From: a virus
IMG/VR virus record: IMGVR_UViG_3300049740_000832
Direction: 5' to 3' (one strand)
Length of the DNA stretch: 64,000 bases
In this document: positions 39,846 through 64,000 of the stretch, piece by piece
Layout: each line of letters starts with the position of its first letter
Position numbering within the stretch: the stretch's first letter is position 1
Made by a program: the position numbers and the translations under genes
The notes under the pieces: generated by a model
The model's database searches: none
Told to the model about the DNA's origin: nothing
Seen by the model: the letters and a program-made list of their open reading frames with translations, nothing else

Positions 39846-39850
39846 GAATT

Positions 39851-40297
39851 ATGGCAAGAAGAGCATTCGCACAGGAAGATAATAATATCAACACTGCTTC
39901 GGTAACGACTAGTAGAACGAAGCAGTATACAGATATTGACCTATCATTTACGGCAAAACCGTCCTCTGGAGAAATATTCAAGAAGACGGACGCAGCTGCT
40001 GTGAAGCAGTCAGTCAAAACGTTGGTGATGTGTAATAAATTGGAAAAACCATTTCGTCCTGATTTTGGAGGAGATGTCCGAGCACAACTCTTTGAACTGG
40101 CATATAAAGGTAAGGATGCACTCTTACGCGATAGAATTATTAATACTATTCAATTTTACGAACCTCGAGCAGAAGTTCTTGATTTGATAATAGATTTGCA
40201 GAGTGATTATAATAGTTTAAGTGTAACACTAAAATTCAAAGTGGTGAATACTGAAGAACAAGTAGAATTCACTTCAACACTATCAAGGTTAAGATAA
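39851..40297 (+). CDS. gp25: baseplate wedge subunit gp25
   Basis: Y.DIDL.F, AVKQSV..L, EKPF.P.FG......LFE, I...EPR. Confidence 0.92.
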   Translation: MARRAFAQEDNNINTASVTTSRTKQYTDIDLSFTAKPSSGEIFKKTDAAAVKQSVKTLVMCNKLEKPFRPDFGGDVRAQLFELAYKGKDALLRDRIINTIQFYEPRAEVLDLIIDLQSDYNSLSVTLKFKVVNTEEQVEFTSTLSRLR

Positions 40298-40298
40298 A

Positions 40299-42125
40299 AT
40301 GGGAACAACAATCAAATCAACCTCACTAGACTTTGATGCAATCAAAAATAATCTAAAAACCTTTCTTGAACAAGGGGGGGAGTTTGATGATTACAATTTT
40401 GAAGCATCTGGATTATCAAGCATCCTTGATGTGCTTGCATATAATACTCATTACAATGGTCTCATCGCAAACTTTGCTTTGAATGAATCATTTCTTGGGA
40501 CGGCACAACTTCGTGGGTCAGTTATTTCTCTCGCAGAGGGTATTGGATATATTCCTGATTCAAAAACTACATCCAAAGCAGTAGTAAATCTTTCTATGAA
40601 TCTGTCAGGATTGGCAACCAGACCAAACAAAATTAGTATCAATGATGGATTTAAGTTCAATGCAACCGTTGATGAAGTTGAATATGTATTTCAAACATTG
40701 GAAGATATCTCTGCAACTGATGATGGTAACGGTCTTTATCTCTTTACAAACGTTGACGGTTCACAAAATATCACAATCCATGAAGGTATTGCTAGAACAA
40801 AGACTTTCCTTGCGTTGGATGCAACCGAAAATGCAAACTATATTATACCAGATGAGTCATTAGACTTAGACACAGTTGTTGTTCGTGTATATGAAACTTC
40901 TACTTCATCTAATTTTCAAACATATACTAATATAGTTGATGCTGTAAATATAAATGAAAACTCGACACTCTTCATATTAAAAGAAGCGCCTAATGGTCTC
41001 TTTGAACTTTCTTTTGGTAATGGTAAAACATTGGGTCGTGCGCCAGCGGCTGGTAATAAAGTTACAGTTGACTATCTTGCAGTATCAGGTAGTGATGCTG
41101 ATACGTCTTCAACATTTGCTCCGCAAAGTAAAGTTACGGTAGAAGGTCAACAATTTAATATAAATGTGACAACGGTCACAAAGGCAGTTGGTGGCGGTAG
41201 TAAAGAATCAATTGAGTCAATCCGTAAGAATGCACCATTCCAATACGCATCACAAAATCGCATGGTAACCGCAGTAGATTATTCTACGTTGGCCTTGAGA
41301 AATTTCTCTACACTCATCAAAGATATTAAATCTTTTGGTGGTGAAGACGCACTAGAACCAGAATTCGGAACGGTCTTTATGTCGGTTCTATTCAATGATG
41401 ATGTAGATGCGACAACAATACAATCAACAAAGGATGCAATTCAAGACCTTGCGAAACAATTGTCGGTTGCATCATTTAGTTTGAAGTTTGATGACCCCGT
41501 AAAGACATTCATTGAGACGAGGATATTCTTCCAGTTCAATCCGAACTTGACTACACTATCTCGTAATACAATTCAAGATAATGTCAATACAGTTATTGGA
41601 AACTATTTTGCGGCAAATACTGGCAAATTCAGTCAATCGTTTAGACGTTCAAATCTCTTAACATTAGTGGATGATATAAGTCCGGCTATTCTCTCTTCTC
41701 GCTCAGATGTTTTTTTCCAGAGAAGGTTCACTCCTACTTTGAATACTTTACAAGACCATAAATTAAGATATGCAGCAATCATCGCTGACCCTGATGACAA
41801 AGAACATATAATCACATCTTCTGCGTTTACGCTCAATAATAAAACCTGTATCTTACGCAATAAACTAGATTCATCAAAACTTGAAGTATTTAACACTATT
41901 GATAGAGAGGTTCTAGTTGACAATATTGGAAATTACAGTGATGACACTATAAGTATTGTCGGTCTCAAAGTTGATGATTTTGTTGGTGCAAATCAATTTA
42001 TCAAAGTAAGTGCAAAACCCGCAAACCAAAGTGCGATTACTCCATTCAGACAAGATATTATTGAATTTGATACTGATGAATCATTCTCTCGTATTGTAGA
42101 TGTTGAGCCTGGAGTTACAAACTAA
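40299..42125 (+). CDS. gp6: baseplate wedge subunit gp6
   Basis: LDFD.IK..L, F.DY.FE.SGLS..LDVLAYNTHY, NESFL.TA..R.SV, FG.G..G, ES..SI...AP..Y..QNR.VT..DY. Confidence 0.95.
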   Translation: MGTTIKSTSLDFDAIKNNLKTFLEQGGEFDDYNFEASGLSSILDVLAYNTHYNGLIANFALNESFLGTAQLRGSVISLAEGIGYIPDSKTTSKAVVNLSMNLSGLATRPNKISINDGFKFNATVDEVEYVFQTLEDISATDDGNGLYLFTNVDGSQNITIHEGIARTKTFLALDATENANYIIPDESLDLDTVVVRVYETSTSSNFQTYTNIVDAVNINENSTLFILKEAPNGLFELSFGNGKTLGRAPAAGNKVTVDYLAVSGSDADTSSTFAPQSKVTVEGQQFNINVTTVTKAVGGGSKESIESIRKNAPFQYASQNRMVTAVDYSTLALRNFSTLIKDIKSFGGEDALEPEFGTVFMSVLFNDDVDATTIQSTKDAIQDLAKQLSVASFSLKFDDPVKTFIETRIFFQFNPNLTTLSRNTIQDNVNTVIGNYFAANTGKFSQSFRRSNLLTLVDDISPAILSSRSDVFFQRRFTPTLNTLQDHKLRYAAIIADPDDKEHIITSSAFTLNNKTCILRNKLDSSKLEVFNTIDREVLVDNIGNYSDDTISIVGLKVDDFVGANQFIKVSAKPANQSAITPFRQDIIEFDTDESFSRIVDVEPGVTN

Positions 42126-43123
42126 TGGGTAAACAAAACGATACTTTAAGAGATTTAGGTAGAAGAGAGCTTGTTTTTTCTGATAACAAGATTACTCAAG
42201 TTCTACCTGAATTCTTCAAGACAGAGTATCCAAAACTCATTACACTTCTTGAACAGTATTATAATTTTGAAGATGATGATAACGCACCTTCTCGTCTTGC
42301 AGATGACCTGTTTTACTCTCGTGATATTACACAGACTGATTTAGACCTTCTTTCATATATTGAAGATGAACTCCTATTGGGTCAATCATACTTTGAAGGG
42401 TTTACTGATAAACGTGCTGCTGCAAAATATTCTAACACTCTGTATCGTTCAAAGGGAACAAAATATTCTATTCAACAGTTCTTCCGAACTTTCTTTGGTG
42501 TTGACCCAGATATTATTTACACAAAAGAGAACGTATTCAAGGTAGGAGAAACTGACTCTCAAATTGGATTGGAATCACAGAAGTTCTTGACAGATAATAA
42601 ATTGTTTCAGACATTTGCGATTCAGGTAAAGTCTGACATCTCATTTAACGAGTGGAGAGAACCATATAAATTATTCGTTCACCCTGCGGGTATGTTCATT
42701 GGTTCGGAGGTGCAGATTGTATCGAGTGTTACTGATGAATTGACTGCTCCTCTTGTTGTGCCTTCTGAAGCACCACCTATTGTGGTCGAGGCAACAGGAT
42801 TATTTGGCGATACAGGAGTAACAGATTTGACCTCTATTGTGGATGACCTAAATACAGATTCAGCAGGCGTATTCAGTCGCATCAATGCAGAATTGACAAA
42901 TATGGAAGGGTTTGATTTACAAACTATCCAAACTATCAATAATCAATATTCATCGTTGCGTGAAGCGCAAATTGCATCTTCACCAACATTTGACGATTCA
43001 GATGAAGTTGGAACAAACGGTATGGACTTGTCAAACAACTTGTTCTTCGAGACTTTAGACCAAGACAAACACCAACATTTCAGTGCTGACTCTGACCAAT
43101 ACTTAAAAAGTTTCACTCTTTAA
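42125..43123 (+). CDS. baseplate wedge protein (gp7-like, short form)
   Basis: LPE.....YP.....LE.YY, Y.SKGT..S...FFR.FF, HPAGM. Confidence 0.7.
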   Translation: MGKQNDTLRDLGRRELVFSDNKITQVLPEFFKTEYPKLITLLEQYYNFEDDDNAPSRLADDLFYSRDITQTDLDLLSYIEDELLLGQSYFEGFTDKRAAAKYSNTLYRSKGTKYSIQQFFRTFFGVDPDIIYTKENVFKVGETDSQIGLESQKFLTDNKLFQTFAIQVKSDISFNEWREPYKLFVHPAGMFIGSEVQIVSSVTDELTAPLVVPSEAPPIVVEATGLFGDTGVTDLTSIVDDLNTDSAGVFSRINAELTNMEGFDLQTIQTINNQYSSLREAQIASSPTFDDSDEVGTNGMDLSNNLFFETLDQDKHQHFSADSDQYLKSFTL

Positions 43124-43134
43124 CCGATAAACCT

Positions 43135-43142
43135 TATAAATA
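43135..43142 (+). promoter_or_regulatory. T4-type late promoter
   Basis: TATAAATA before ORF 43165. Confidence 0.7.
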
Positions 43143-43164
43143 GTTAAAACAAACGGACTATAAA

Positions 43165-44196
43165 ATGGCAAGACAAACATTAAACAGAGGCACTACAGCA
43201 AATGACGGAACGGGTGATACCCTCCGCACCGCTGCCCAAAAGATTAATGAGAACTTTACTGAACTCTACCAGAGTATCGGTGGTGATTCTGCAGCTGCAA
43301 TCGTAAGTCTATCAAATGTGGGTGTGGTCTTTGAAGGTCAGGTTGCAGACAGTAACGAAACATATATGGTTGCGGTAGAACCTACCGCTGATAATTATGT
43401 GTATGTTCCTAATGATGGCGGGACACTTATTCTTGACTCTTGCGCTCAGACTTTGACTAACAAAACTATTTTAAGTCCTTCGTTGACTACTCCTTCTATT
43501 AAAGATAATGACTCTAGTCATAGTTACAATGTTGTGGTTGGTAATTTATCTGCAAATCGTAATATCACTATTCCGTCACTGTCAACAAACGACACATTCG
43601 TGTTTGCAGATGCAACTCAGACTCTTAGTAATAAAACAATTAATGGGTTAAATGTTAACAATCCAGTAGTTGGTGGTATAGATGGCGGTTCAAAATTCTT
43701 TGATAGTTCAGATAACGAGTATTTACAATTCAACAAAACTTCAAGTGCAGTCAATTTCATAACACTGACAAACTCTGCAACTACTACTGGCCCAACTATC
43801 GATGTCGATGGTGATGATACTAATGTTAGTCTCAATTTAAGTGCAAAGGGAACTGGTGGTATCACGTTTACAAATAAGATTGTATTTGAAAAAGGAACTG
43901 ATGTAGCATCCACCACTGCGGTCAACTTAAATCAACCCCTAACAGTGTTTAACTCTGGTAGTTTTATCAACCCTACTCTTGGTGATGGAACGATTCAGGC
44001 AGAGTCTAAATACTTCAGTAATATTGGGGCGGGTGAAGTTCATCTCACGCCAGCGGGCGGCGCATCAAACATTCAGGGTGTAGATTCTGCTGCTGGGTTT
44101 ATTAAGTTTACTATAGGACAGGGGTGTCAACTAATATGGAATACAACAGCAAGTAAATGGTTTATTGTTGGAAACAACGGGACAACAACAGCGTAA
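43165..44196 (+). CDS. baseplate wedge/tail-fibre connector (gp9/gp10-like N-terminus)
   Basis: G..ANDGTGD.LR....KIN.NF.ELY; QTL.NKT repeats. Confidence 0.75.
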   Translation: MARQTLNRGTTANDGTGDTLRTAAQKINENFTELYQSIGGDSAAAIVSLSNVGVVFEGQVADSNETYMVAVEPTADNYVYVPNDGGTLILDSCAQTLTNKTILSPSLTTPSIKDNDSSHSYNVVVGNLSANRNITIPSLSTNDTFVFADATQTLSNKTINGLNVNNPVVGGIDGGSKFFDSSDNEYLQFNKTSSAVNFITLTNSATTTGPTIDVDGDDTNVSLNLSAKGTGGITFTNKIVFEKGTDVASTTAVNLNQPLTVFNSGSFINPTLGDGTIQAESKYFSNIGAGEVHLTPAGGASNIQGVDSAAGFIKFTIGQGCQLIWNTTASKWFIVGNNGTTTA

Positions 44197-44211
44197 GCGT
44201 AGGATAATAAA

Positions 44212-45570
44212 ATGGCGATTGTAACAAACAGAATTAAAAAACAAGTTATAACAGATTTGTTGACAGATTTTGCTGATTCTTCTAGTAGATATTATGCAGC
44301 TATTGGTCGTTCAGAAGATTGGAATGACTCTGATGTTGCGCCCACTGCTCTTAACAATCTGGTAGAAGATAGAAACTTCCGTCTTGGACTCCAATCGGTA
44401 AAAAATATTATTGATACTTCCTTTGTTGTTCCTCGTTTCAACTGGTCATCTGGTGCAATTTATTCTCCATATGATGATATCCAAGTAGGATATCCTACTC
44501 AAACATACTACGTTATGAATGACAATAACCAAGTTTATCTGTGTATTCAACAATCAAAAGATGTCTCTGGTAATGCACAGGTTTCTACAGTTCAACCGAC
44601 AGGTGGCACAGATGGAACGCCATTCGATACCGCTGATGGTTACATTTGGAAGTTCCTATATTCTATTGGTGCATTGGATGCTAACAAATTTATTTCTGCC
44701 AACTTCCTTCCCGTCAAATTAATTGGAACAACTGACTCAGATTCTCCTTCTGCTGACATTGAACAAAAGACAGTTCAAAATAACGCAATAGTTGGTCAGA
44801 TTATTGGATATGCAATTGACTCTGGTGGCGCTGGATACTCTGGTAACCCAACCATCGAAGTGAATGGAAATGGCACAAAAGCAAAAGCAGGCGCAACAGA
44901 GAATGGTGGTCAGGTAACTAAGGTAGAACTAATTGATAGTTCTGGTAATTATACATTTGGTTCAGGTTATGACTATGCAACAGTATCCGTTACGGGCGGT
45001 GGTTCACCAACCAAACCCGCAAAAATACGACCAATTCTAGCAACACCTCTTGGACTTGGTGGTGACGCTCGAGATGACCTTCGCTCCACCGCAGTCATGT
45101 TTAACAGTAAACCTAGTGGAACTGAAACTGGAGACTTCATTGTCGGTAACGATTTCCGTCAAGTAGGTCTTATCAGAAATATTCAAGATAGTTCTGGGTC
45201 TACCTTATTTACTGGGTCAACAGGTATTGCGTTAAAACAATTAAGACTTTCAAGTGTGAACACAGGATTTACCGCAGACAATACTATTCAGGGTTCAACA
45301 TCTAATGTCAAGGCACTTATTGATAAAGTCGATTCTGCGAATATTTGGTATCACCAAACAGCGGAGACAGGATTTGGTAACTTTGATTCAGGTGAAAACA
45401 TCACTGAAACCGATGGTAATGGTGCAGGCGTATTGAATGCTTCTTTTGCTCCATACATAAATCCTGAAGTAGATATTCTAACGGGTGATGTTCTATATAT
45501 TGATAATCGCGCATCAGTTACTCGCGCAACTGACCAAACAGAAGATATAAAAATCGTAATTCAAATTTAA
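44212..45570 (+). CDS. gp8: baseplate wedge subunit gp8
   Basis: Y..IGR...W, VPR..W..G..Y, YYV......VY.C, DGY.WKFLY, DFRQ.GL, G...YIDNR....R...Q.EDIKIVI. Confidence 0.88.
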   Translation: MAIVTNRIKKQVITDLLTDFADSSSRYYAAIGRSEDWNDSDVAPTALNNLVEDRNFRLGLQSVKNIIDTSFVVPRFNWSSGAIYSPYDDIQVGYPTQTYYVMNDNNQVYLCIQQSKDVSGNAQVSTVQPTGGTDGTPFDTADGYIWKFLYSIGALDANKFISANFLPVKLIGTTDSDSPSADIEQKTVQNNAIVGQIIGYAIDSGGAGYSGNPTIEVNGNGTKAKAGATENGGQVTKVELIDSSGNYTFGSGYDYATVSVTGGGSPTKPAKIRPILATPLGLGGDARDDLRSTAVMFNSKPSGTETGDFIVGNDFRQVGLIRNIQDSSGSTLFTGSTGIALKQLRLSSVNTGFTADNTIQGSTSNVKALIDKVDSANIWYHQTAETGFGNFDSGENITETDGNGAGVLNASFAPYINPEVDILTGDVLYIDNRASVTRATDQTEDIKIVIQI

Positions 45571-45580
45571 GGTAATACCG

Positions 45581-48500
45581 ATGCCAAGAACGTTTACAGA
45601 AAATGTATTTTCATCCACATACAAGGATGATTTTAAGGATAGTGATAACTATCACCGTATCCTGTTTAATAGTGGTCGGGCGCTACAAGCGAGAGAACTT
45701 ACTCAATCACAAACAATTATTCAGGAAGAGATTGGTAGATTTGGTCGCAACATCTTTAAGGATGGTGCATCGGTAAATCCTGGCGGCCCTACAATTAATA
45801 CGAACTATGAGTTTGTAAAACTAAACACAAACACTAATGCATTACCAGCTGGCGCAAATGCGCTTGAAGCAAATGGTGGTTTGATTGGTGTAGAATTTAC
45901 TGGTGCCAATTCTAATGTTGTCGCACGAGTTCTTGAGGTTGTCGAGGCAGAGGGTTCTGACCCTGCAACACTTTATGTTCAGTATGTTAATACTTCTGGT
46001 GGTGAAGTTGGAGAAAACCCAGTTCGTTATAAGTCAGGTGAAACTATATCAGGCGGCGGTGAGACTCTAACTGTTCAGTCAACCAACACCGCATCAAACC
46101 CCGCTATTGGTCGCGGTTGTCAAATTTCTAATTCATCTGGTGACTTTTTTGTTCGTGGTCATTTTGTATTTGCAAAAGAACAAAGTTTAATTCTATCGAA
46201 ATACTCGCGACTACCTTCAAAAGTTATTGGTTTCAAAGTAACAGAAGATATTGTTACAACCAGTGATACAAATGAGTTGTTTGATAATCAAGGTGCTACA
46301 CCAAACTTATCTTCGCCGGGCGCAGACCGATATCGTATTCAACTTACTTTAACAACAAAAGACCAAGTTGCAAGTGATGAAAACTTTGTTTACTATTGTG
46401 ATGTAGTCGATGGTAATATCGTTGACCAAGTAAGCGGAACAGATGATTACAATAAAATTACCGAAGTATTAGCGCAAAGAACGGCCGAAGAATCGGGTAA
46501 TTATATCGTGTCCCCATTTACTATTGATTTTGCTGACGATGCGACAAACAATACAAACTTCATTGCAAGTGTATCTTCGGGTGTTGCATATCTTAATGGA
46601 TATCGCGTTGGTTCTGAAAAACCTACGAAGTTAACTATACCAAAACCTCGGGCAGAAGTTGAACGCACAAATGAGGTTGTTGGTGTTAACTATGGTCAGT
46701 ATTTTATATGTGATGTATTGGAAGGTAATCTCAATATAAACCAATTCCAAACTGTTGGACTTAAAGATGCAACAGGGTTTGGCGGCAACGGGCTCGGCAC
46801 TGCAAGAGTTAGATATGTAGAAGAAGATGGGTCAAACTTCAAGATATACCTTTTTGATATTAACTTATTATTAGGTAAAGTTTTGCGTGATGTTAAATCA
46901 TTCGGAACAGGCACAGCTGATTTTGCACAACCACTTTTGGAAAATGGTAAGGCAGTAATCAAGGAATCGAATAAAGTAAATCTTGTATTCCCTACACCAG
47001 ACCCTCGTCCTAAAAGTATTACTGATGTAGACTTTGAAGTTCAACGTGTGTTCACTGGAACTTCTGACGATGGAACAATTGTTCATTCAAGTAGTATACC
47101 AACTAATAATGCTAGTGGAACTGTTCAACTTACATTGTCTGCTACAGGTGAGACATTTGCTAATACGGGTCAATTCATTGCGACTGTTGACTCTAGTGGT
47201 GATGTCGTTTCGTCTCTAACCATTGGTGCTGCGGGAACTCAAAGCGTTAACGTTAGTGGTTTACCAATTGGTTCAGCTGTTACAGTTTATGCAAAAGTTA
47301 ATAAAGCACAACCATCAGTTCGGACAAAGACGTTGGTTGAAACCACAAAAACTTTTACTGGTATATCCGAAGATAGTAACGGAAGTAAATATATCGACCT
47401 TCATGAAAATGATATCTTTGAAATTGTTTCAATTAAAGATACAGATTCAAATGGCGCAGACCAATCAAGTAAATACTATCTTGATAATGGTCAGAGAGCA
47501 GGGTTTTATAATAATGGTCGTTTGATTCTTAATGGTGGTGCAACTGCACCCGGCGGTTCTGATAATACCTTCATAAGATTCAAACACTTTACCCACGGTG
47601 CAGGCGACTTCTTCTCCGTGAACTCTTACACTGGTCAAGTTGATTATGAAGATATCCCATCCTTCGCAACAGGCCCACGGGAATCCGTAAACTTGCGTGA
47701 TGTGATTGACTTCCGTTCTTCGGTTGACTCTGATGGATTGTTTGTTGGTGGTGATGCTGCTGTCAATGAAATGCCTACCAATGGTGATATTTTTCAAGGG
47801 GATGTAACATATTATATGCCTCGTGCAGATAAGGTTGTGATTACCAAAGATGGAGAACTGAAAAATATTCAGGGTGAGAATGGATTTGGTTCACAAGTTC
47901 CAGATACTCCCGAAAACACTCTAGGTCTTTTTGAGTTAGAATTGAATGCATATGGTCTGCATGATTCGGATGTTGCAACAAATGTTCTTAGAGCAAAAAG
48001 ATTCACAATGGCCGATATTGGCAAACTAGAAAAACGTGTCGATAAACTTGAAGAAGTTACCTCGTTGTCATTACTTGAAGTCGGCACTGATGCTCTGTTG
48101 GTCTTAGACTCTGCGGGTAATCCAAGAACTAAGTCTGGTTTCTTTGTTGATAACTTCGCTGACAGAACTTTCTCAGACGTTCAAAGTCCAGAGTATCGTG
48201 CGGGTATTGACCCATCAACAGAAACTTTATCACCTCAAAAGACTGAGAAAAATGTTACACTACGATATGACTCTGCTGCATCATCGAATACTATTCTGAA
48301 GGGTGATACTGTATATCTGAAATATCAAGATGTAGAAGCAATTACACAAACACAGGTATCAGGAACAGAGAATGTAAACCCATTTGCTGTTATTACAGGT
48401 GAAGGCGAACTTACACTTTCTCCTGCTTCTGATGAATGGATTGACACAGAATATCGTCCCGCAAATGTAATTAACAAAACTGCAACAGAAACTTTGGCAG

Positions 48501-50812: not shown

Positions 50813-51021
50813 TGAGTAACAAATATGTAATGGTTGATGGCTCTCCTAGTTATGCTCGTGATATGGAAACTGGCGGTATTATTAATATAAATAAAGAAGA
50901 GATTGAAGCGGCGAGAGAAGCAAAAAGAAAAAGAAAAAATAAGGAACAGGAGTTCCAAGACTTAAAGAATGAAGTTGGTGAAATAAAAGAACTCCTCAAT
51001 AAACTGGTAGAGAAACTGTAA
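50812..51021 (+). CDS. small coiled-coil virion-module protein
   Basis: RD..TG.IIN...E...LK.E..EIK.LL; coupled to neighbours. Confidence 0.65.
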   Translation: MSNKYVMVDGSPSYARDMETGGIININKEEIEAAREAKRKRKNKEQEFQDLKNEVGEIKELLNKLVEKL

Positions 51022-52070: not shown

Positions 52071-52088
52071 TACTTGGAGTGATACATA

Positions 52089-55000: not shown

Positions 55001-55838
55001 CGTCTCAAGAACAAATAAATCACCTAGTTATACAGAGACTATCAGGACAGCGACTACCGCACAACTAACTTGGATACGAGGTCATCAGCCGGGTCTTGCG
55101 GCCACAAACGGACAGGATTGGATTGGCGCATCGTCTGGCATTAGTTATCCTTATTCGAATAGTGATTACATTCAGGCCGGCCCGAATGGAACGCAATGCC
55201 CATATGGCGCAACATTCACGAAAAACCTAACTCGTGCTTATGCTCTGAATAACTCATCACAACCAACATTTGCTAATGGAATATACCCTGTAGGTTTTGA
55301 TGATGATTATGGCACGGGTGGAATATTTTGTTTTTATGCGAACAATAATAATGTTTATCTAGTTGGTTCGAATTGGTTAGATTCACAAAGCACAAGTAGT
55401 AATCGAGGGATTACAGTCTGTGATTTTTCAACGGCGGTTTCTACAAATTATACTGGTAACTATTCAACTGATTTCTTACAGAACTTCACCCGTCTAATTG
55501 AAACTAATTTTACAGGCGACTTTGCTGGTAACTATTCTAGGAACTTCACGGGGAACTATACTAGGGATTTCACTAGAACACGCACATCAACATACTTGGG
55601 TGCTGAAACATTTAGTCGTGATTTCACAGGTAACTATGAGGGTAACTATACTAGGAACTTTACTCGAACATTTGAAGGTAACTACACAAGAGACTTTACT
55701 GGAAACTACGAAGGTAATTATCAACAAAACTATATTGGTAACTATGTAGGTGAGTTTTTAGGTAACTATGCTGGTGATAGTATTGGTTCAGGGTCTAGTA
55801 ACATTGAGACATATACACTCTATGTAAGAACTGCATAA
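52089..55838 (+). CDS. putative branched fibre/adhesin with tetrapeptide repeat arms and two globular inserts
   Basis: Shares N-terminal (PLKL..., ENYLAYQ.G, YPG.Y.L, QG.Q.M, W.AKGTATD.R) and C-terminal (IETYTLYV.TA) segments with the next gene. Confidence 0.7.
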   Translation: MTSYVPLKLKDSANFEEFDTTSSIASNDENYLAYQVGLALSEADSSEPASLSLLADLSTDSAYFIGDLINTEYDSAIGTGGSGSFLTFSQTVQSVFQRDGTVSFTDSDYRIPIYTKNYSGADQLDDTTANLSQVNLLRNRTKFDYVEIVSVSNGDDLTIKIPSERNVIFDRFVGTSINQHDSDVNGYATHAGTVEFGNALHEPPKMTVEAAVGVTTGRYEDSDNAYVINFRNATIGGTAYASAEAKSEYEIGDNGIYVNALTQNNFQTIINEMDSSARSSLVDRLNRRIFTSDYPGSYRLSSVSPDSADWSLDLSNVMTDTRDSAGNYSLQYNIYKRTSMAAPNTVLPFAIKRSNGDSGDYQGLQRMTPRQVKYSLGQEAKKRIASSSTNIGNYRILSSATGTPSDIGLSGTWTAKGTATDTRQAVVDANYTRTRSSSFSRLRTSTFAGNYTRTRSSAFSEDYTTTRESTYSANYTRTRASNYSLGFVGDFIANYTTERDQNFTRNRIAPGALSYTRTRSSTFTGNFSRILQYTTNYTGDFVGPVTSGLSVIGTADIQITSQALFNGAVSALVTVPSGTKSVILCANVKTNGNRRSLFSAVTFGGTAMNEAISQNNTPAEYTFDTGIYNVNYTSTGVKTVFFFLSNNPQVYGMGARVIFLNKAFSSYSPSDADGVSTTGSSGRGDITNHNKYANGITVASATCRAPNSGAYVAQVGDLAYLYSPYIDTTGWNQGFIQHPSGNNSGSITGYELPTGVGPAGTISFRYMQNDFGESAAVASWAPSKFEQDYDVTYTGNFTRVGQYTSNFSRNFTGNYTRDAVYTGNYTGDFLGDFTRNRQATRPDDFTRDFTGDYSNDYTRTRVSTYTRNATGVFTGGYTGYYTGDFTSNFTRISTATTGATQRVLIGPASSNTNYWWSSSNQTNRVSFGSFESWFAATNLIASSGSSAISVENYNTNGTYLHGYYGHPASASVSRTNKSPSYTETIRTATTAQLTWIRGHQPGLAATNGQDWIGASSGISYPYSNSDYIQAGPNGTQCPYGATFTKNLTRAYALNNSSQPTFANGIYPVGFDDDYGTGGIFCFYANNNNVYLVGSNWLDSQSTSSNRGITVCDFSTAVSTNYTGNYSTDFLQNFTRLIETNFTGDFAGNYSRNFTGNYTRDFTRTRTSTYLGAETFSRDFTGNYEGNYTRNFTRTFEGNYTRDFTGNYEGNYQQNYIGNYVGEFLGNYAGDSIGSGSSNIETYTLYVRTA

Positions 55839-55849
55839 ATAGGGTTATC

Positions 55850-57580
55850 ATGGGAACTACACCACTAAAACTTGACGGAACTGACGGCAACCTTAAACAG
55901 ATGACAACATCTGAAGAGAACTATCTCGCATATCAGGCGGGATTGCATCTTGCATCTTTGGATTCTGGTCAAACCTATGTGATAGGTAATGTCTCTCATT
56001 CTGGAACAAATCGTTCAATCGGTTCTATAGTTGATACCAAGTTTGATGACGGAGTTGGAACACATGGATTTGCTAATGGAACTGTTCCTGTTACTCAAAC
56101 AAGTTATGCCTTCAATCAACACGCAGATTCGATAACATATTCAGACTCAGCGGATTTCAGAATTCCTACTGAATTTGTTGATAATAGTGGTTCTGCTGAA
56201 ATTCATGAACTTACAACAAGTGAACAAAACACACTAGGTGATAGAATAGCATCTGCACTTTTTACCAATGAATATCCTGGCTGTTACAAGTTAGGGTCAT
56301 CAACGCCAGGCAGTGATTGGTCAGTTCACAAATCAGGTATCTTTGAGGATACAATTGAAACTGGTGTATCAGGAACTTCATATAATCTATATGTAAAAGA
56401 CTCTATCTCATCTCCACCGTCTGCTGTCCGACCAGTTAGTGTCAAACGTTCAAGTGGTGCAACAGGAACGTTTCAGGGTATTCAGGAGATGTCTGATGCA
56501 GAGGTGAGGTATACTTTTGGTGCTCTTTGTCAAAGTCGGATGGCATCTGCTTCAAGTGCTATTGGTAATTATCTAATCAGGTCATCTGCTCAAGGTGCGC
56601 CATCAGGTGGAACATGGGTTGCAAAAGGAACTGCAACTGACAGTCGTAGGGATACAACTGATACAGATTATACTAGAACATCTGTAACTGAATTTACAAG
56701 AACTAGGTCAAGTGCCTTTCAGGGTAATTACTCTAGGGTCTTTTCTGCTGACTATACAAGGAATTCAACTGAAAACTTCACACAAGTTTTTACGGGAAAT
56801 TTCGTAGGCGACTTCACTGGTAACTATGCTACAAGTTATACGAGGACTTCTACCCGTGAAACTGATACGGATTTTACCAGAAGTTCTAGTGGTGACTTTA
56901 TTGGTAACTATGCTACAGATTTCACAAGAAACTCTACCAGAAATTCAACTAGAGATTCAAATAGAACATCAACTCGAACTAGAGTTCTTACCTATGCCGG
57001 CAACTTTGCAGGCAACTTTGCTGGTAACTTTGTTGGTAACTTTGTTGGTGACTATACTCGCGGTAGACTCTATTATTCTGACGGAACATTTTATGGCACT
57101 GCGGGTAACTATGTAGGTAACTACGCCAGAACATCAACTCGAACATCAACTCGAACATCAACTCGAACTAGAGTTACTAACTATGTCGGCGACTTTGCAG
57201 GCAACTTTGCTGGTGATTTTACAGGCGACTTTACAGGCGACTTTGCTGGTAACTATGTTGGTGACTTTACCAGAACTCGGGCGGTTGATTTTACAGGTAA
57301 CTTTATTGGCGATTTCACAGGTAACTATGAGGGTAACTATGCTACGGATTTCACAAGAAACTCTACCGCTGACCGAACTGAGGATTTCACTGGAGACTTT
57401 GTAGGTGACTTCACAGGTAACTATGAAGGTAATTACTCTAGGAATTTTTCAGCTGACTATAGTCGAGACTTCATAGGTAACTATGGAGAAAGTTTTTTAG
57501 GTAACTATGTCGGAACAACAATCGCAGCATCGACTTCTACAATTGAAACATACACCCTATATGTTAAAACCGCATTGTAA
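55850..57580 (+). CDS. putative hairpin fibre with xGN(F/Y) and TRxS tetrapeptide repeats
   Basis: Paralog of 52089-55838; 34+34 tetrapeptide units around an 11-aa tip. Confidence 0.7.
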   Translation: MGTTPLKLDGTDGNLKQMTTSEENYLAYQAGLHLASLDSGQTYVIGNVSHSGTNRSIGSIVDTKFDDGVGTHGFANGTVPVTQTSYAFNQHADSITYSDSADFRIPTEFVDNSGSAEIHELTTSEQNTLGDRIASALFTNEYPGCYKLGSSTPGSDWSVHKSGIFEDTIETGVSGTSYNLYVKDSISSPPSAVRPVSVKRSSGATGTFQGIQEMSDAEVRYTFGALCQSRMASASSAIGNYLIRSSAQGAPSGGTWVAKGTATDSRRDTTDTDYTRTSVTEFTRTRSSAFQGNYSRVFSADYTRNSTENFTQVFTGNFVGDFTGNYATSYTRTSTRETDTDFTRSSSGDFIGNYATDFTRNSTRNSTRDSNRTSTRTRVLTYAGNFAGNFAGNFVGNFVGDYTRGRLYYSDGTFYGTAGNYVGNYARTSTRTSTRTSTRTRVTNYVGDFAGNFAGDFTGDFTGDFAGNYVGDFTRTRAVDFTGNFIGDFTGNYEGNYATDFTRNSTADRTEDFTGDFVGDFTGNYEGNYSRNFSADYSRDFIGNYGESFLGNYVGTTIAASTSTIETYTLYVKTAL

Positions 57581-57616
57581 AAAATGAATATATAAAATTG
57601 AAATTAACTATGGAGA

Positions 57617-58075
57617 ATGATAGTGCAGAGAATATGGTTAAATAATGCATTTTGGGAAACACCCAAAAGACAAATGTTGAATGCAATTAGTGAGGTGACC
57701 GAAGAACCTAATAAGGTGAAACGGGAAGTTCACAAATTAAATAAATATAATGATGACGGAACACCAAACGAACTTTTTAATGAAGCGATTGAATTTTTAG
57801 GTGAAGAGTCTATCAATGCAGCAACTAACAAACGTCTTGAAAAGAAACAAGCAGAAGCTGAAATTGAAAAAGAAAAAAAGTTAGAGCAAGAACGTTCTAA
57901 GAAACTCGAAAAACTGTTTGAGTATAAACTAGAGACATTTGAGATTGATGAAATAAAGAATTCAAAAAACCGTTTATTAAAATCAAAGTTGAGACGTTCT
58001 AAATCGATTCCTGAAGTGAACCTGTATGCTATGATGATTGTTAAGGAATCTTTAGAAGATGAACACATCAAGTAA
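57617..58075 (+). CDS. hypothetical protein (possible fibre assembly/modification accessory)
   Basis: GGAG RBS; charged coiled-coil; KL..FE..EIK.S......K..LR. Confidence 0.55.
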   Translation: MIVQRIWLNNAFWETPKRQMLNAISEVTEEPNKVKREVHKLNKYNDDGTPNELFNEAIEFLGEESINAATNKRLEKKQAEAEIEKEKKLEQERSKKLEKLFEYKLETFEIDEIKNSKNRLLKSKLRRSKSIPEVNLYAMMIVKESLEDEHIK

Positions 58076-58805
58076 GGGTTTTGTAATTGTCGCGTCAAAG
58101 AATTCAAACTTCTATATCTATGCGACTAACCTAGCAGAATCAATCAAAGACTTTTATCCTGAATCGCAAATCACTCTGGTAACAGAAGAACGTTTTATTG
58201 ATGGACGGGCTGATGTTGCAGATAACATCATATATTGTGACAATCACTATCGTGCCAAACTCTGGGGTATGGCACAAACTCCATATGACATAACAATGTA
58301 TGTTGATGCAGATATGGATTGCGAACACGAAGACATCATGACCGTGTGGGATAATCTAAAAGACTATGATATGGTCTTTCACGAGTTGACAAAAGAAAGA
58401 GAGAAATTTTACGCAATACGAGAGTTTTCATATAATGGTAATATGGAGAAATATACCTTATGCGGTGGTGTCTGTTTGTATCGCAGTTCTAATCCTCTGG
58501 TTCGGGAGTTCATGGAAGACTGGTTTGAATTATTTAACAAACAATATAATGGTCTGTGGACTCCTAATGGATTTAATGATGAACAGTGGAGACAAGACCT
58601 TGCTAAATTTGACCAGACAACACTTTGGTGGTTGGTTAACAAGGTAGATAAATATAAGGACTTAAAGATTGGTTTCTTTCATGATGATATTCGATGGAAC
58701 TATTTTACCCAATATGGTTATGAAGGTCTAAAATCCATTGAAGGTAAACCACCAGTTTTACGTCACTACTCTGGTTCTTTGAAAAAGGATACACTCATAG
58801 TATGA
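58059..58805 (+). CDS. GT-A glycosyltransferase embedded in fibre module
   Basis: RAKL....TPYD.T.Y.DAD, GGV.LY, DQ..LW, RWN, HYS. Confidence 0.75.
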   Translation: MNTSSKGFVIVASKNSNFYIYATNLAESIKDFYPESQITLVTEERFIDGRADVADNIIYCDNHYRAKLWGMAQTPYDITMYVDADMDCEHEDIMTVWDNLKDYDMVFHELTKEREKFYAIREFSYNGNMEKYTLCGGVCLYRSSNPLVREFMEDWFELFNKQYNGLWTPNGFNDEQWRQDLAKFDQTTLWWLVNKVDKYKDLKIGFFHDDIRWNYFTQYGYEGLKSIEGKPPVLRHYSGSLKKDTLIV

Positions 58806-59470
58806 AAAATGTCCCCATAAAAAATCAAGAGATTCTTGAGGCCTTAAATAACTTTCTATGGTTTTATAATAATCGGGGAATTATTGAAAGAAATTATGTA
58901 TTACATGGAACTGAGAGACAAAGAAAGGAGTATGTGAGTTCTGAGTATCGTGACAAGGTTATCGCAATGAATGAAAACCATGATGGTTTCCCAGAAACAA
59001 TACACTCTTACGCTCTCAAGGCTGACCGTATCGTTCATGTCAACAATAACAGTGTTGAGGTGGCGGAGGCAATATCAAAATATAGTGATTATAATCAACA
59101 ACTAGCACATATGTTATGCACAAAAAATAATGCACTAACTCAAATGTATCCGCCTGGCGGATTTATTGCTTGGCATAATAATGCAAATGCATCTGCATAT
59201 AATATTATTTTCTCTTGGTCAGAGACGGGAGAAGGATGTTTTAGGTATGTTGATGGTCATACAGGTGACGAAGTTGTCATGCAAGATGTAAAAGGATGGC
59301 AGTGTAAAGCAGGATACTTTGGTGCATATGGTGAACCGTGGTATAATCGTGTATATCATGCAGCGGAAACTGACTGTTGGCGACTAACGGTATCATACAT
59401 GTTTGATAGAAGTCAAATGTCTATGGGACTGCAAGACGAAATTGTAGAAGAAATAATGTCTGAAATATAG
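58802..59470 (+). CDS. 2OG-Fe(II) oxygenase-like protein
   Basis: YPPGGFI.WH.N, G.F.Y, YHAA...C.R.T.S double-stranded beta-helix pattern. Confidence 0.65.
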   Translation: MKNVPIKNQEILEALNNFLWFYNNRGIIERNYVLHGTERQRKEYVSSEYRDKVIAMNENHDGFPETIHSYALKADRIVHVNNNSVEVAEAISKYSDYNQQLAHMLCTKNNALTQMYPPGGFIAWHNNANASAYNIIFSWSETGEGCFRYVDGHTGDEVVMQDVKGWQCKAGYFGAYGEPWYNRVYHAAETDCWRLTVSYMFDRSQMSMGLQDEIVEEIMSEI

Positions 59471-59491
59471 TTTCCTTAACGTCAAAATCCT

Positions 59492-59499
59492 TATAAATA
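59492..59499 (+). promoter_or_regulatory. T4-type late promoter
   Basis: TATAAATA before ORF 59530. Confidence 0.7.
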
Positions 59500-59529
59500 A
59501 AGACAAAGAAGAAGTAATGGGTTTTGAAA

Positions 59530-59898
59530 ATGGCATTAATTTCATATGAAGATATTGTAATAAATCAAGGCACCGATGTCGCTATTGAGATTCATCTCAT
59601 CAATGACAGTGGTTCTGCATATGATTTAACATCACGAACAGCTACAGCAAAAATGAAACGTAGATATGGTGACTCGGCAAATGACCCTGATACGGTTACA
59701 TTTAATGCCGTGGTTACCACACCGCCAGAAGATGGTATTGTTACATTATCTCTTACAAACGCCGAAACTGATGCTCTGAAAACAAGAGGTCGGTATGTTT
59801 ATGATGTAGAAGTATCTTACGCTGATAGTGATAACAATCAAATAATTCAAAGAGTTCTCGAAGGACAAATCGAAGTCTCACCTTCGGTCACAAAATAA
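59530..59898 (+). CDS. small virion structural/fibre adaptor protein
   Basis: I.QG.D, DLT, G...LSLT...T..L..GRYVYDVE, R..EG...V.P.VT. Confidence 0.7.
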   Translation: MALISYEDIVINQGTDVAIEIHLINDSGSAYDLTSRTATAKMKRRYGDSANDPDTVTFNAVVTTPPEDGIVTLSLTNAETDALKTRGRYVYDVEVSYADSDNNQIIQRVLEGQIEVSPSVTK

Positions 59899-59910
59899 TA
59901 AGAGGAAACC

Positions 59911-62900
59911 ATGACTGAAAAGATTATTGTCAAGAAGGTGGTAGTAGGAACTCCTGTAAAACGAGTGACTGCTGGTTCTTTCTCTCTCACCAACTTGGGT
60001 GGTGTGGATGTTACTGCCACCGAATCTGATGGTTCTATCCTTGCATATAACCCCACAACAGGGAACTATGAAATAACGAATCTTCGTAATGATGATAATG
60101 TCACTGTCACATTTGATAGTGCTGAAAATACATATTCCTTTGCTTTCACCAATACAACATTCACTGGTTCTCTGATACCAGATAGTAACGAGGTATATGA
60201 CCTCGGCAGTGAAAATAAAAAGTTTCGTAGTCTTTTCCTGTCAGGCAACACCATCACTCTAGGGTCAATTGACCTAAAAGATAGTAGTGGTGCATTGGTG
60301 GTCGTGGATAGTGACGGAAACTCTATCAGTCTCAACATCTCTCTAGGAACTTCTCACACAGACGGTAATACGGATATTCTGACGTTTGATAGTGGGTCAG
60401 GTCAGTTTACATTTAGAGATTCAGATGTTGCAAGAACTGATGTTGCAGAAATATTTCATCAAGGCATTACAGTAGACAATGGCGCAACGATTGACTCCGC
60501 AACAATCACCAATCTCGCAAATACACAACTGACGGGTTCTCAAGCGACCTTTGATAGTGCAGATATTGGAAACCTGAAGATTACGGGTAACCTCAATGTA
60601 ACGGGGACAACCACTACTCTGAATACAGAGACAATCGCACTCGCAGATAACACTATTGTTTTGAACTCAAATGCAACGGGTTCTGCAACCGAAGATGCTG
60701 GTATCGAGATTGAACGTGGTGATGATGCAAACAAAACATTCCTCTGGGATGAGACCAACGATTATTGGTCAATCGGGTCAGAGACTTTCAACACCACAGG
60801 TAAGATTCTCTTTGCAAACGTATACAGCACAGAGGGTGACCTTCCAAGTGCATCGACATATCATGGTATGTTTGCACACGTTCATGCAACGGGTCGTGGA
60901 TACTTTGCACACGGCGGTGCATGGCACAGACTGGTTGACTCCGATACGACAGGTGAACAACAAGTATATTCATTGTATTCCAACAATGCGAGAGTCACCA
61001 ACGCACAAATTGATTCTGCAACCATTACTAATCTAGCAAGCACTCAATTGACAGGTTCACAGGCAACCTTCGACAGTGCGAATATCACATCTCTAGGTGG
61101 TATTACTGGATTTGATGCAACATCAACTTCTACCTTGCGTGGATTGTTCTCCTCTGCGGGTGACCTAACATACAATAGTGGAACAGGTCAATTCTCCTTT
61201 GATGTAGAACAGGTTTATACTAAATCTAATTTTGACAGTGACTTGGGTGCAGCCCTTGATGGTGGCACGGGTATCACTTACGATAGTTCGACAGATACAA
61301 TTTCTATAACGAACACGGGTGTTACTGCGGGAACTTATGGTTCGGCGTCTTTGATTCCTGTCTTTACTGTGAATGCACAGGGTCAACTTGATAGTGCGGG
61401 AACAGTTTCAGTTGCGGGTGTGACATCATTTGCATTCGATTCCTCAAATGGTAACATCTCTATCGGAACTGCTGATGGTGCAACATTCCTCACAACGATT
61501 ACCCTTGACCCATACACAACGAGTAATCTTGTAGAGGGAACAAACCTTTACTATACAACCGCTCGTGCTGACTCTGATGCGAAGGCATCTCTCCTTGTCA
61601 ACGATACGGGTGGTGATGGTTCACTGTCTTACGATAGTGCGACTGGTGTATTCACCTACACAGGGCCATCGTCCAGTGAGGTTCGCGCACACTTTAGTGC
61701 TGGCGGAGATATGACGTATGACAGTTCAACGGGTCGTTTCTCGATTGATGTTGAACAAATCTACAGTCAAGCAAACTTTGATAGTGACTTCCTGACACGA
61801 TTACAGACACAGATTGACAGTGCAAGTTTTGACCAACTTACTGCGGAATTCATTCATACGGATTCTGCATCCTTCGATAGTGCAACGATTACGAACCTTG
61901 CGAACACCCAGTTTACTGGTTCACAGGCGACTATCGATAGTGCTGATATCACAACTATAAAATCGACTACCGCGACCATCACAAATGCGACAGTTGATAG
62001 TGCAACAATTACAAATCTTGCAAACACTCAATTAACTGGTTCACAGGCGACTATCGATAGTGCTGATATCACAACTATAAAATCAACCACTGCGACTATC
62101 ACAAACGCAACCGTAGATTCGGCCACAGTAACTAATTTAGCAAATACACAGTTCACTGGTTCTCAAGCAACTATTGACAGTGCAAATATTGGAACGTTAA
62201 AATTTACTACACTGACCAATACAACAAGTGACATTACTGAAGGAACGAATTTATATTATACAGATGCAAGAGCGAGAAATTCAATCGGTCTCTCCGATGT
62301 CGGAGGAGACGGTTCACTCGCATATGATTCTTCAACAGGTAGATTTACATATACTGGCCCAAGTGCTGCAGAAGTTCGAGCGCATCTGACCGCAAACAAA
62401 GGTTTATCGGTAACGAGTGGTGAGTTCAATATCGACTCTGCAAATGTCAAAGGTATGTTACAGGCGGGAACAGGTGTCACATACGATAGTTCCAATGGTC
62501 TTATCAGTATCGGACAAAATGTTTCAACAACAAGCGATGTGACCTTTGGTAAGATACATGGTGATTCCGCAGAATTGCATGTTATAGATTTTGATACAAC
62601 TATCTCTGGTCATGCACCGTATAAAGAAGGTAGATTATTCTACGATAATACGCATAAAACCCTCAACTACTATGATGATATCACAAATGTTGTTCATGAG
62701 ATTGGTCTGGAAGAACACCAACGTGTATTCAATAATACAGGCGCCACTATCAAGAAGGGTTCAGCACTCTACTTCTCTGGTAACTATACATCAGGAGCAA
62801 TCGATGTTCCAACTGTAGGTCTTGCAGATGCGACAGATGTAAACGCATATAACGCACAAGGTCTTGCAGCTGGAGATATTGCAAACCTCTCCTATGGTCA

Positions 62901-64000
62901 TTGTATTATCGCTGGTCAGTTGACCGAAGTAAATACCGCACATTTGAGTGATGGACAAAACTTCTTTGTATCAGTGACACAACCTGGCTCACATCAAAAC
63001 CAATCTCCGACATATCCAAACTTCCCAATGTGTCTGGGTTGGGTTGTTCTTTCGGGTGACTCTAGCAACGGTATCCTGTTGGTTAATCAACAAAACCACT
63101 CTGTGAACTCATTCCGTGTTCGCACATCTGCACATATCGGTTCGGACTTACAAGTCGATGGTAACCTGACCATTCTGGGTAGTCAGACTACTGTGGGTCA
63201 ATCAAATGTGACACAAGGTGCGCCTTTCTATCGTCTCAATGAAGGTGACGCGATTGGTGAAGCAGGAACGACATATACTGGAACGGGTCTTGACGATGCC
63301 TTCTTCTCTGGTCACTTTACAGGAACAACAGCACAGACCTACTATGTCCGTATTGACGGTGCGGGAACTGGTGCGGGTGGTGTAGATACCTTTGAGGTTG
63401 CATTGGGTAATGATAGTGTATTTGCCTCACCTATCCTTACAAAAGTTGCAATCACAGGTAATAAACAAGAAATTCATTCTACCGATAATATTTCGGTTGA
63501 GTTCGGTGCAACCACGGGTCACGACTCAGGTGACCTATGGCAAGGTGTTGCATCTCCTGTAAATGTTGATACTGGTTTCTTCACAAACAGAAACACAGGC
63601 ACATCAGGTGTCGGTTATACCCACATGGGTCTCTATTTTGATATCTCTGACGAGAAGTGGAAACTCCTTGATGAGTATGACTCAACACCAACAGGAACTA
63701 TTAATGCTGCGGATTCATCATTCAGTCTTGCAACATTGGTTGCAGAAACCTTTGAAGGTAATCTGACTGGTGCGGTGACAGGTAATGCCTCGACTGCAAC
63801 GGCACTCGCAAGTGGTCGTAACTTCTCCATATCTGGTGATGTGACTGCAAGTGCCGTATCGTTTGATGGAACGGGTGCGGTAACATTAAGTGCCGCAATC
63901 ACTGCTGATACGATTATCAATGCAGACATCAAATCAGATGCCGCAATTGCAGATACTAAACTTGCAACAATATCAACATCTGGTAAAGTAAGTAACTCTG
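59911..64000 (+). CDS. giant tail fibre protein (>1363 aa, 3'-truncated by window)
   Basis: Manual translation open from ATG 59911 (GAGGA RBS) to window end; [37 protein letters not shown] fibre motifs; missing from ORF track. Confidence 0.88.
61876..62190 (+). repeat. in-frame tandem 120-nt (40-aa) repeat in tail fibre
   Basis: [12 protein letters not shown](F/L)[27 protein letters not shown], about 2.6 copies; related units near 60490 and 61010. Confidence 0.85.

Follow-up and report, generated by a model that had tools for sequence, protein, structure and literature searches.

The stretch analysed here, called the window throughout, comprises 64,000 nucleotides of the virus record IMGVR_UViG_3300049740_000832, and all coordinates are window positions. 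Genes were assigned with Pfam and PHROG scans, which show that the + strand encodes a tail and baseplate module of T4-like type. Marine metagenomes contain thousands of close homologues, and the nearest gp8 in the public phage collection, that of C48C1, is 34% identical. Our subject is a short motif that recurs in the outer virion proteins of this module, Asp-Ser (DS) followed by Ala, Asp or Ser (D-S-[ADS]), together with its possible connection to a glycan-building gene island in the same window (182-18159, + strand).

Nine outer virion proteins are encoded on the + strand from position 42125 onwards. A baseplate wedge protein of 332 amino acids (42125-43123; PF23786, E 2.9e-11) contains 4 DS, three of them within D-S-[ADS]. 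The gp9/10-N-like connector (43165-44196, 343 amino acids; PF07880, E 5e-7) has 6 DS against 1.95 expected, four of the six being D-S-[ADS] (shuffle p 0.008), and the gp8-like wedge protein (44212-45570, 452 amino acids; PF09215, with a weak match to T4 gp8 1n7z) has 9 against 3.4, with six of the tripeptide form (shuffle p 0.003). In the VrlC-like/DUF4815 protein (45581-50812, 1743 amino acids; PF16075, E 1.7e-61) the dipeptide is at background (10 versus 8.9 expected), yet 7 of the 10 are D-S-[ADS]. Open reading frame (ORF) 51021 encodes a fibre protein (51021-52070, 349 amino acids; phrog_25848, tail fibre) in which all 6 DS, against 1.9 expected, are D-S-[ADS] (shuffle p 0.008). Two repeat-bearing paralogues follow. 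ORF 52089 (52089-55838, 1249 amino acids), a large fibre-module protein that matched neither a Pfam nor a PHROG family, carries 13 DS, 11 of them within its first 360 residues and 10 of the D-S-[ADS] form; ORF 55850 (55850-57580, 576 amino acids) carries 6 against 4.7 expected and is counted as not enriched because only one of the six is D-S-[ADS]. Beyond a three-gene cassette discussed below lie an LtfC-like fibre adaptor/assembly protein (59524-59898, 124 amino acids; phrog_1084, phrog_3304), with 3 DS against 1.0 expected and two of three D-S-[ADS], and a giant fibre (59911-63999; phrog_9729, tail fibre) that is cut by the window end. The window holds the first 1363 of its 1756 residues (full-length protein P0121), with 36 DS against 11.7 expected, 31 of which are D-S-[ADS]. 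The arrangement is like the host-recognition cluster of pelagimyophages and cyanomyophages, in which VrlC takes the place of gp7 and the stretch from VrlC to the neck genes contains fibre genes and glycosyltransferases (PMC7029224). However, the window clade belongs to neither group, given that its best gp8 match in the phage database is the 34% one, and the cultured pelagimyophage HTVC008M has no GT25 or GT8 matches and no motif.

With the nine proteins pooled and observed counts compared with expected ones (O/E), DS occurs 93 times against 44.6 expected (O/E 2.09, z 7.2), whereas the other 57 window ORFs have an O/E of 0.73. Per-protein shuffles give p values of 0.0003 to 0.008 for the giant fibre, the gp8-like protein, the gp9-like protein and ORF 51021. 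The original prediction, made from the letters alone, had counted DS by hand, and its counts are reproduced exactly (fibre 36, gp8 9, gp9-like 6, ORF 51021 6, adaptor 3, VrlC-like 10, gp6 2, gp48 and gp32 none). The enrichment is thus real, and it is stronger than had been stated. It had also been claimed that the next residue is nearly always Ala, Ser, Asp or Gly. For three of these residues that is borne out, as A, D or S follows at 70 of 93 sites (75%, versus a 25% background; p 3e-24), but Gly must be struck from the list, since it shows no enrichment after DS in the nine outer proteins; a twofold enrichment of Gly is seen instead at position +3 of the sites. Given the bias toward A, D and S, the real signal is the tripeptide D-S-[ADS], which is present 70 times where 11.2 are expected (O/E 6.3). 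D-S-A is enriched 9.0-fold, D-S-D 6.2-fold and D-S-S 4.1-fold, D-S-A being the commonest form (32 of 70).

The specificity of this tripeptide is high. In the outer proteins D-S-[LIVMT] is depleted (5 versus 13.9 expected, 0.36), and the near variants are all low (D-T-[ADS] 0.42, N-S-[ADS] 0.53, E-S-[ADS] 0.52, D-A-[ADS] 0.32; D-T-[ALVIMT] 0.76), as are the pooled dipeptides DT (0.73), NS (0.57) and ES (0.55). Among the close variants, namely D-T, N-S, D-A/G and the scrambled orders, none is enriched like D-S-[ADS]. Nor does the signal depend on the giant fibre, without which 39 sites remain against 7.9 expected. In the four non-fibre baseplate-periphery proteins D-S-[ADS] occurs 20 times against 3.9 expected (P 7e-9); near variants are close to 1 there, and D-S-hydrophobic is absent (0 versus 6.8 expected). 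The motif is also confined to the virion surface: the nine inner tail and baseplate ORFs (31586-42125, including gp48 and gp6) hold 1 site where 4.9 are expected, and the remaining window ORFs hold 5 versus 12.1. For the dipeptide, gp6 has 2 DS against 4.5 expected, and gp48 and the probable gp32 ORF, whose label comes from the original prediction and from the annotation of the C48C1 neighbour, have none.

Several trivial origins can be set aside. DS in the outer proteins is written with 11 different codon pairs, and its serines use both codon families (43 AGY and 50 TCN), which rules out a DNA-level repeat or motif and bears out the earlier proposal of selection at the protein level. Scrambled orders of the same residues (D, S and one of A, D, S) have O/E values of 0.7 to 2.3 versus 6.3, so that the signal is order-specific and a local composition bias of loops is ruled out as well. 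Repeats do contribute, as about 16 of the 42 DS of the giant fibre sit in near-identical copies belonging to two DS-carrying families, a 20-residue pentad unit and a hairpin module. Nevertheless, the full-length fibre retains 26 DS against 11.4 expected once the later copies of its internal repeats are masked, and this, together with the signal in non-fibre proteins, rules out repeats as the sole source. Correction for composition and repeats, which the original prediction had named as a check, therefore leaves the enrichment in place by shuffling, by masking and by scrambling.

A broader version of this objection combines descent with a look-elsewhere effect. DS-bearing fibre modules would have been duplicated and shuffled among the outer proteins, and DS would have been picked post hoc from 400 dipeptides. 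Besides the near-identical copies in the giant fibre, it can draw on the fibre homologues, 120 of which were sampled and share the repeats (pooled DS O/E 2.36, median DT O/E 0.38), and on the strong biases that other phages have of their own, such as FE in HTVC008M or GN, NY and TR in C48C1. However, the signal survives masking and is not limited to fibres: gp8, the wedge protein and the VrlC-like protein have it, as do the capsid, sheath and neck proteins of a complete relative described below. The contexts of the sites are non-homologous and show turnover, and in a look-elsewhere scan DS is the dipeptide with individual enrichment in the largest number of proteins, both in the window (4) and in the relative L103 (5). 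We therefore regard this explanation as quite improbable.

Outside the clade the motif is missing. The outer proteins of T4 (DS O/E 1.18), Syn9 (0.87), Melnitz (1.11), phiM9 (0.74) and HTVC008M (1.11) are at baseline and lack the third-residue preference (19-27%), which rules out a generic trait of T4-like fibres. For the full ORF sets of seven other phages, the O/E of D-S-[ADS] is about 0.84, which we take as the baseline. D-S-[ADS] enrichment was not found in T4, Syn9, Melnitz, HTVC008M, phiM9 or CRP-207, and no GT25 genes were found in these six or in C48C1. In C48C1, DS stands at 1.08 and DS[ASD] at 43%, a weak third-residue bias only. The comparison with relatives lacking GT25/GT8 genes, also named as a check beforehand, hence did not refute the prediction.

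These controls bear on the idea that the motif binds cations or water, with the Asp carboxylate and the Ser hydroxyl (D-S-D being a DxD) capturing Ca2+ or Mg2+ from seawater to stiffen exposed loops and fibres. The 6.2-fold enrichment of D-S-D fits, some sites are loops of the DxDxNG type (e.g. DTDSNGAD in the VrlC-like protein), and restriction to the virion surface suits an extracellular role. However, a third ligand is missing from the predominant D-S-A, the marine phages Syn9, HTVC008M and Melnitz do without the motif although they come from the same water, and no known Ca-binding family emerged from the Pfam scans. We consider a cation-binding role improbable.

The structural context of the sites raises the most serious competing explanation. 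In an AF2 model of the gp8-like protein (pLDDT 78.5), the D of DS is the last residue of a strand and the S the first residue of a loop, in tight hairpins or just before helices. For a segment of the giant fibre the AF2 monomer is of low confidence (pLDDT about 50-52), so only its secondary-structure pattern was used; there D would close a strand before a four-residue S-x-T-G loop, D624 would be a helix N-cap, and short strands recur, likewise at low confidence, with a period of 20. Taken together, the models place the sites in loops, at the beginnings of turns and at helix N-termini, in keeping with the exposure that the original prediction had wanted checked. Among homologues, substitutions of the D of DS go to N (30%), S (22%), G (14%) or T (10%) and in <2% of cases to E, whereas other Asp residues change to E in 19%.

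Two fibre elements illustrate these settings. Residues 650-775 of the giant fibre (61858-62235, + strand) consist of pentapeptide-like repeats with a 20-residue period of four pentads. Self-identity in this segment is 0.29 at an offset of 5, 0.24 at 15, 0.38 at 20 and 0.27 at 25, compared with about 0.08 elsewhere. In the pentad ATIDS, D-S takes two positions and the next pentad begins with the following Ala. The repeats match designed pentapeptide solenoids in PDB weakly (4yei, 5dra; E 0.4 to 0.65), and no Pfam family matched the giant fibre, pentad repeats included. With its tandem five-residue periodicity and four pentads per coil, the segment looks like a pentapeptide-repeat-type solenoid inside a tail fibre. 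The second element is the hairpin GGDGSLxY-DSxTG-xFTYTGPS, which can be aligned with the GB1 hairpin. It is part of a larger module, TNLYYT(D/T)ARA...GGDGSLxYDSxTGxFTYTGPSxxEVRAHF, that is repeated at 61591-61720 and 62300-62420 (residues ~561-603 and ~797-836).

According to a purely structural explanation, Asp would cap a strand end or a helix start (Asx-turn or N-cap), the turn would begin with Ser and the small residue after it, and the motif would be a loop style fixed in the clade, involving no modification. The modelled position of D, confident for gp8 and of low confidence for the fibre, is what this predicts, as are the alignment of the hairpin with GB1 and of the 20-residue repeat with pentapeptide solenoids, the exchange of Asp for N, S, G and T at a secondary-structure boundary with hardly any E, the doubled Gly at +3, and the use of N-S-G or S-A-G by CRP-207 in the same module. 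Indeed, Asx-turn and N-cap motifs generally look like this, having Asp at a strand end or N-cap before Ser and a small amino acid, and frequently Gly at +3. However, such motifs are neither clade-specific nor confined to surfaces, and they do not exclude N-S, D-T or T-S. Capping should enrich N-S, D-T, S-S, T-S and D-G too, and all of these are at or below 1; T4, Syn9, Melnitz, HTVC008M and phiM9 have the same folds but no motif; the loops of the inner baseplate lack it; and sites were gained in variable loops of this clade only. Since near variants, other lineages and inner proteins are without the signal, a generic turn preference fails to explain it. The modelled positions and the substitutions fit a capping residue and fit equally a sequon displayed on a turn. 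We regard the purely structural explanation as possible, if on the unlikely side.

The relatives show how the sites evolve. In a complete relative of 149 kb (G002), whose gp8 is 73% identical to that of the window, the outer module has 55 D-S-[ADS] against 12.4 expected, and the region of neck, sheath and capsid 13 against 5.4, with 3 versus 0.43 in the putative major capsid protein (the one supported label, by PF07068) and 4 versus 1.23 in a putative sheath protein. All its other genes together have 18 where 27.8 are expected. Thirteen of the 15 ORFs of G002 with at least two sites fall in the virion region, the only others being 53395-54795 (3 versus 0.49) and 19746-20723 (2 versus 0.30; loci L092, L094). 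In the more distant L103 (gp8 44% identical), DS O/E is 2.77, with 3.2 to 4.0 in the fibres. The four non-fibre baseplate-periphery proteins have 16 sites versus 4.0 expected in G002 and 18 versus 2.7 in L103, and in a wider sample the outer module reaches a D-S-[ADS] O/E of 3 to 6 in most lineages whose gp8 is 36-50% identical to that of the window.

Individual sites are partly conserved and partly turned over across the clade, while the type of motif is kept. Conservation of the Ser in DS exceeds that of other Ser (0.75 versus 0.59, p 0.01). DS columns that are new in homologues are of the form DS[ASD] in 57% of cases for gp8, 63% for the gp9-like protein and 83% for ORF 51021, and in 0 of 51 for gp6. 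A cross-lineage alignment of gp8 places the DS sites in variable loops or in a clade-specific insertion, and other gp8 lineages have T-S, T-A, N-S, E-S or a gap there, from which we conclude that the motif was acquired in this clade.

A candidate source of a modification lies in the glycan-building island, identified from Pfam matches. It encodes three GT25 and three weak GT8-like proteins, two sulfotransferases, methyltransferases, a carbamoyltransferase, a radical SAM/SPASM protein, a HAD-nucleotidyltransferase fusion, an amidotransferase and a cupin. The three GT25 proteins score above the Pfam cut-off, so that the glycosyltransferases are phage-encoded; no GT9/heptosyltransferase was found among those island ORFs that were scanned with a cut-off of E 1. 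Every motif-rich record long enough to judge (G002 to G009) carries GT25 genes. No close relative without glycosyltransferases was found: all long relatives retain GT25, and two fragments without a GT25 match are only 31% complete. The GT25 genes thus track the motif. In a gp8 tree, all motif-rich sequences and C48C1 form one well-supported clade. A quick maximum-likelihood tree places C48C1 inside the motif-rich group, which would make it a case of joint loss of GT25 and motif. However, the approximately unbiased (AU) test gives p 0.153 for C48C1 just outside, and secondary loss in C48C1 is therefore not established as an independent contrast.

A second candidate lies within the fibre module itself, where three genes (57617-59470, + strand) are co-oriented with the fibre genes and lie 5' of the adaptor and the giant fibre. 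The first encodes a Lys/Glu-rich protein of 152 amino acids (57617-58075) that has no DS, an orthologue in G002 and a 49% homologue at the same position in C48C1. The second, ORF 58059 (58059-58805, 248 amino acids), is a predicted GT-A-type nucleotide-sugar transferase, a distant relative of GT8/Nucleotid_trans. The ORF itself has no Pfam match. It has 157 homologue clusters; 7 of 54 homologues match PF01501 (best 1.8e-8) and 7 of 54 match PF03407, and of its DxD residues D83 is invariant and D85 nearly so in the alignment of 54 sequences, both being invariant in 13 closer homologues. An Atlas feature search also gave a lead for this protein. The third, ORF 58802 (58802-59470, 222 amino acids), has an invariant WHNNANA and H186, 538 homologues and a paralogue in G002 (24382-25074). 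It matched no family in Pfam and nothing in PDB. The original prediction had labelled it a 2-oxoglutarate oxygenase; this, like an Asp hydroxylase assignment, finds no support in Pfam or PDB, the single lead being a weak Atlas feature, 'Asp/Asn beta-hydroxylase' (score 0.92).

The T4 late-promoter motif TATAAATA occurs 14 times in the window against 4.1 expected, with + strand copies at 6876, 25297, 30682, 31542, 39838, 43135, 50886 and 59492. Most of these stand immediately 5' of structural genes, including those of the gp9-like protein (43135), ORF 51021 (50886) and the adaptor (59492), and one, at 6876, is inside the glycan island before ORF 6918.

On balance we favour, without reaching even confidence, the reading that D-S-[ADS] is a clade-specific, serine-directed recognition motif, most likely an O-glycosylation sequon. 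In this reading a large clade of uncultured marine T4-like phages has gained the tripeptide through selection on the protein, at exposed positions (loops and the beginnings of turns and helices) of the proteins that face outwards on the virion. Among these are the fibres, the adaptor and the gp8, gp9-like and wedge proteins, joined in the complete relative by capsid, sheath and neck proteins. There it would serve as the recognition site for a factor acting on the serine. The likeliest such factor would be cytoplasmic O-glycosylation by the transferases of the phage itself, co-oriented with the late structural genes, using a glycan made by the conserved island of GT25, GT8, sulfo-, methyl- and carbamoyltransferases. 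The data establish the motif itself, its specificity, its surface restriction, its conservation and turnover in the clade, and its co-occurrence with GT25 genes; we infer that the serines carry any modification, that it is a glycan, and which enzyme initiates it. Six properties together match what a sequon should look like: tripeptide specificity, acquisition in variable loops of non-homologous proteins, restriction to the surface, depletion elsewhere, persistence with turnover in a deep clade, and co-occurrence with the conserved island. A fuller proposal, which we put forward with clear doubts, is that these phages encode their own protein O-glycosylation system, active in the cytoplasm and with D-S-[ADS] as its acceptor sequon. 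In this widespread clade the system would coat the whole outer virion surface (fibres, baseplate periphery, sheath, neck and capsid) with a tailored (sulfated, carbamoylated, methylated) glycan.

Recognition by something other than a glycosyltransferase would leave the same traces. The serine or aspartate could be modified in another way (phosphorylation, acylation, or Asp hydroxylation by the third cassette gene), or the motif could be a docking site for a decoration protein or chaperone. The specificity and surface restriction speak for this as much as for a sequon, and ORF 58802, with its Atlas lead, adjoins a predicted transferase and lies 5' of the fibre richest in the motif. Nevertheless, ORF 58802 has neither Pfam nor PDB support, its cassette does not track the motif, and neither a kinase nor an acyltransferase was recognised in the window. 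We give such alternatives a low probability.

Comparison with known systems places the proposed sequon apart from each of them. The Bacteroidota O-glycosylation sequon, D-(S/T)-(A/I/L/V/M/T), is enriched in its target protein class and not in others (PMC12871550, PMC8550257). Likewise, D-S-[ADS] has three residues, with Asp before a hydroxyl residue and Glu as no substitute, as seen from the E-S-[ADS] ratio and the rarity of D-to-E replacement, and D-S-A fits both. However, here Thr is avoided rather than accepted, and hydrophobic residues at +1 are depleted with Asp and Ser favoured, leaving Ala as the only residue that obeys the Bacteroidota +1 rule. Moreover, in Bacteroidota the glycan comes from a lipid carrier and is attached to exported proteins in the periplasm. 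The virion proteins of tailed phages, in contrast, assemble in the cytoplasm. Identity with the Bacteroidota sequon is thus ruled out by the avoidance of Thr and of hydrophobic +1 residues and by the wrong topology.

Closer in topology are cytoplasmic systems. The AIDA-I and TibA beta-helix autotransporters are O-heptosylated in the cytoplasm by Aah/TibC, and serine-rich repeat adhesins are glycosylated by GtfA/B plus GT8, GT8 enzymes extending protein O-glycans. As proposed here, many serines of repetitive surface proteins are thereby glycosylated in the cytoplasm before assembly. However, these systems recognise a structural repeat or Ser-rich tracts, unlike D-S-small, and the Pfam scans of the window detected no GT9/BAHT-like or GtfA/B-like enzyme. 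In phages, virion glycosylation in mycobacteriophages reportedly concerns siphovirus capsid and tail-tube proteins, and we know of no short sequon of the D-S-[ADS] kind reported for it. Work on these phages (Freeman 2023, cited in PMC12582341; PMC11256854) describes glycosylation of the virion by phage-encoded glycosyltransferases, which resembles the present proposal in the origin of the enzymes and in the proposed coating with glycan of structural proteins that are produced in the cytoplasm. The difference is that the modification was shown there by experiment, while our case is a T4-like myovirus known from sequence alone, with a far larger island that includes sulfo-, carbamoyl- and methyltransferases.

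Several points weigh against a sequon. The motif occupies regular structural sites, namely the hairpin Y-D followed by S-x-T-G, the helix N-cap and the solenoid corner; its Asp is swapped for N, S, G and T and almost never for E, as a capping residue would be; and the hairpin module of CRP-207 has N-S-G or S-A-G in place of D-S. Other phage fibres have strong dipeptide biases of their own (e.g. FE in HTVC008M, z 9.8). Avoidance of the motif outside the virion is weak, 0.58 versus the 0.84 baseline. The association between motif and GT25 may be a single evolutionary event, because the AU test allows C48C1 to stand outside the motif-rich clade. The cassette of the fibre module, with its predicted transferase, does not track the motif: in C48C1 the cassette (58% identity) goes with a weak motif, and G008 (151 kb), rich in the motif, has no cassette. 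The earlier idea of a sequon for the glycosyltransferases of the window is accordingly supported in part by the co-occurrence with GT25, but its link to ORF 58059 is not, and the case for that ORF as the responsible enzyme is weakened by C48C1 and G008. In addition, computation cannot show the modification itself, and to our knowledge no cytoplasmic O-glycosyltransferase with a D-S-small sequon has been described. Finally, the published opinion is that such glycosyltransferases in marine myophages alter the host O-chain (PMC7029224).

Marine myophages commonly carry large glycosyltransferase islands, for which an alteration of the host surface is the usual guess. The D-S-[ADS] signature points to the virion itself as the acceptor, and because it pinpoints the likely target serines one by one, the question can be put directly to the test. 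Should the sequon reading be confirmed, no earlier sequon-directed protein glycosylation would be known from a phage, and only one other short O-glycosylation sequon from the bacterial world. Island genes now read as 'host LPS (lipopolysaccharide) modification' would then be virion-coat genes, which bears on the annotation of 'LPS' auxiliary genes, and there would be consequences for how phages adsorb, for grazing and for the stickiness of particles in the sea. If the motif is merely structural capping, it would still represent an unusually clean, clade-wide and surface-restricted change in how loops are built.

Some observations concern the fibre module and its cassette more generally. The three cassette genes are kept as a unit, with gene order retained, in C48C1 (L188:150-2030) and in L103. 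In the relatives L145 and L153, the large ORFs that lie at the matching site 5' of the cassette, a match by position, are nearly free of DS (O/E 0 to 0.27). ORFs 52089 and 55850 are themselves strongly enriched in the dipeptides NY (O/E 2.7), TR and GN by way of short tandem repeats, and the same biases are found in a giant protein of C48C1 (L003:29942-39985, 3347 amino acids; GN z 13, NY z 12, TR z 9). In the HTVC008M fibre genes gp59-gp64 (L102/L101), D-S-F makes up 19 of 56 DS sites and FE is enriched 3.7-fold in four proteins; from these biases we conclude that lineage-specific short motifs are common in paralogous fibres. The hairpin module of the giant fibre also occurs, at about 51% sequence identity, in a tail fibre of the unrelated 55-kb roseophage CRP-207 (L100:23014-24864, - strand), where the hairpin reads Y-N-S-G-T-G or Y-S-A-G instead of D-S, and this sharing points to an exchange of fibre modules across phage types.

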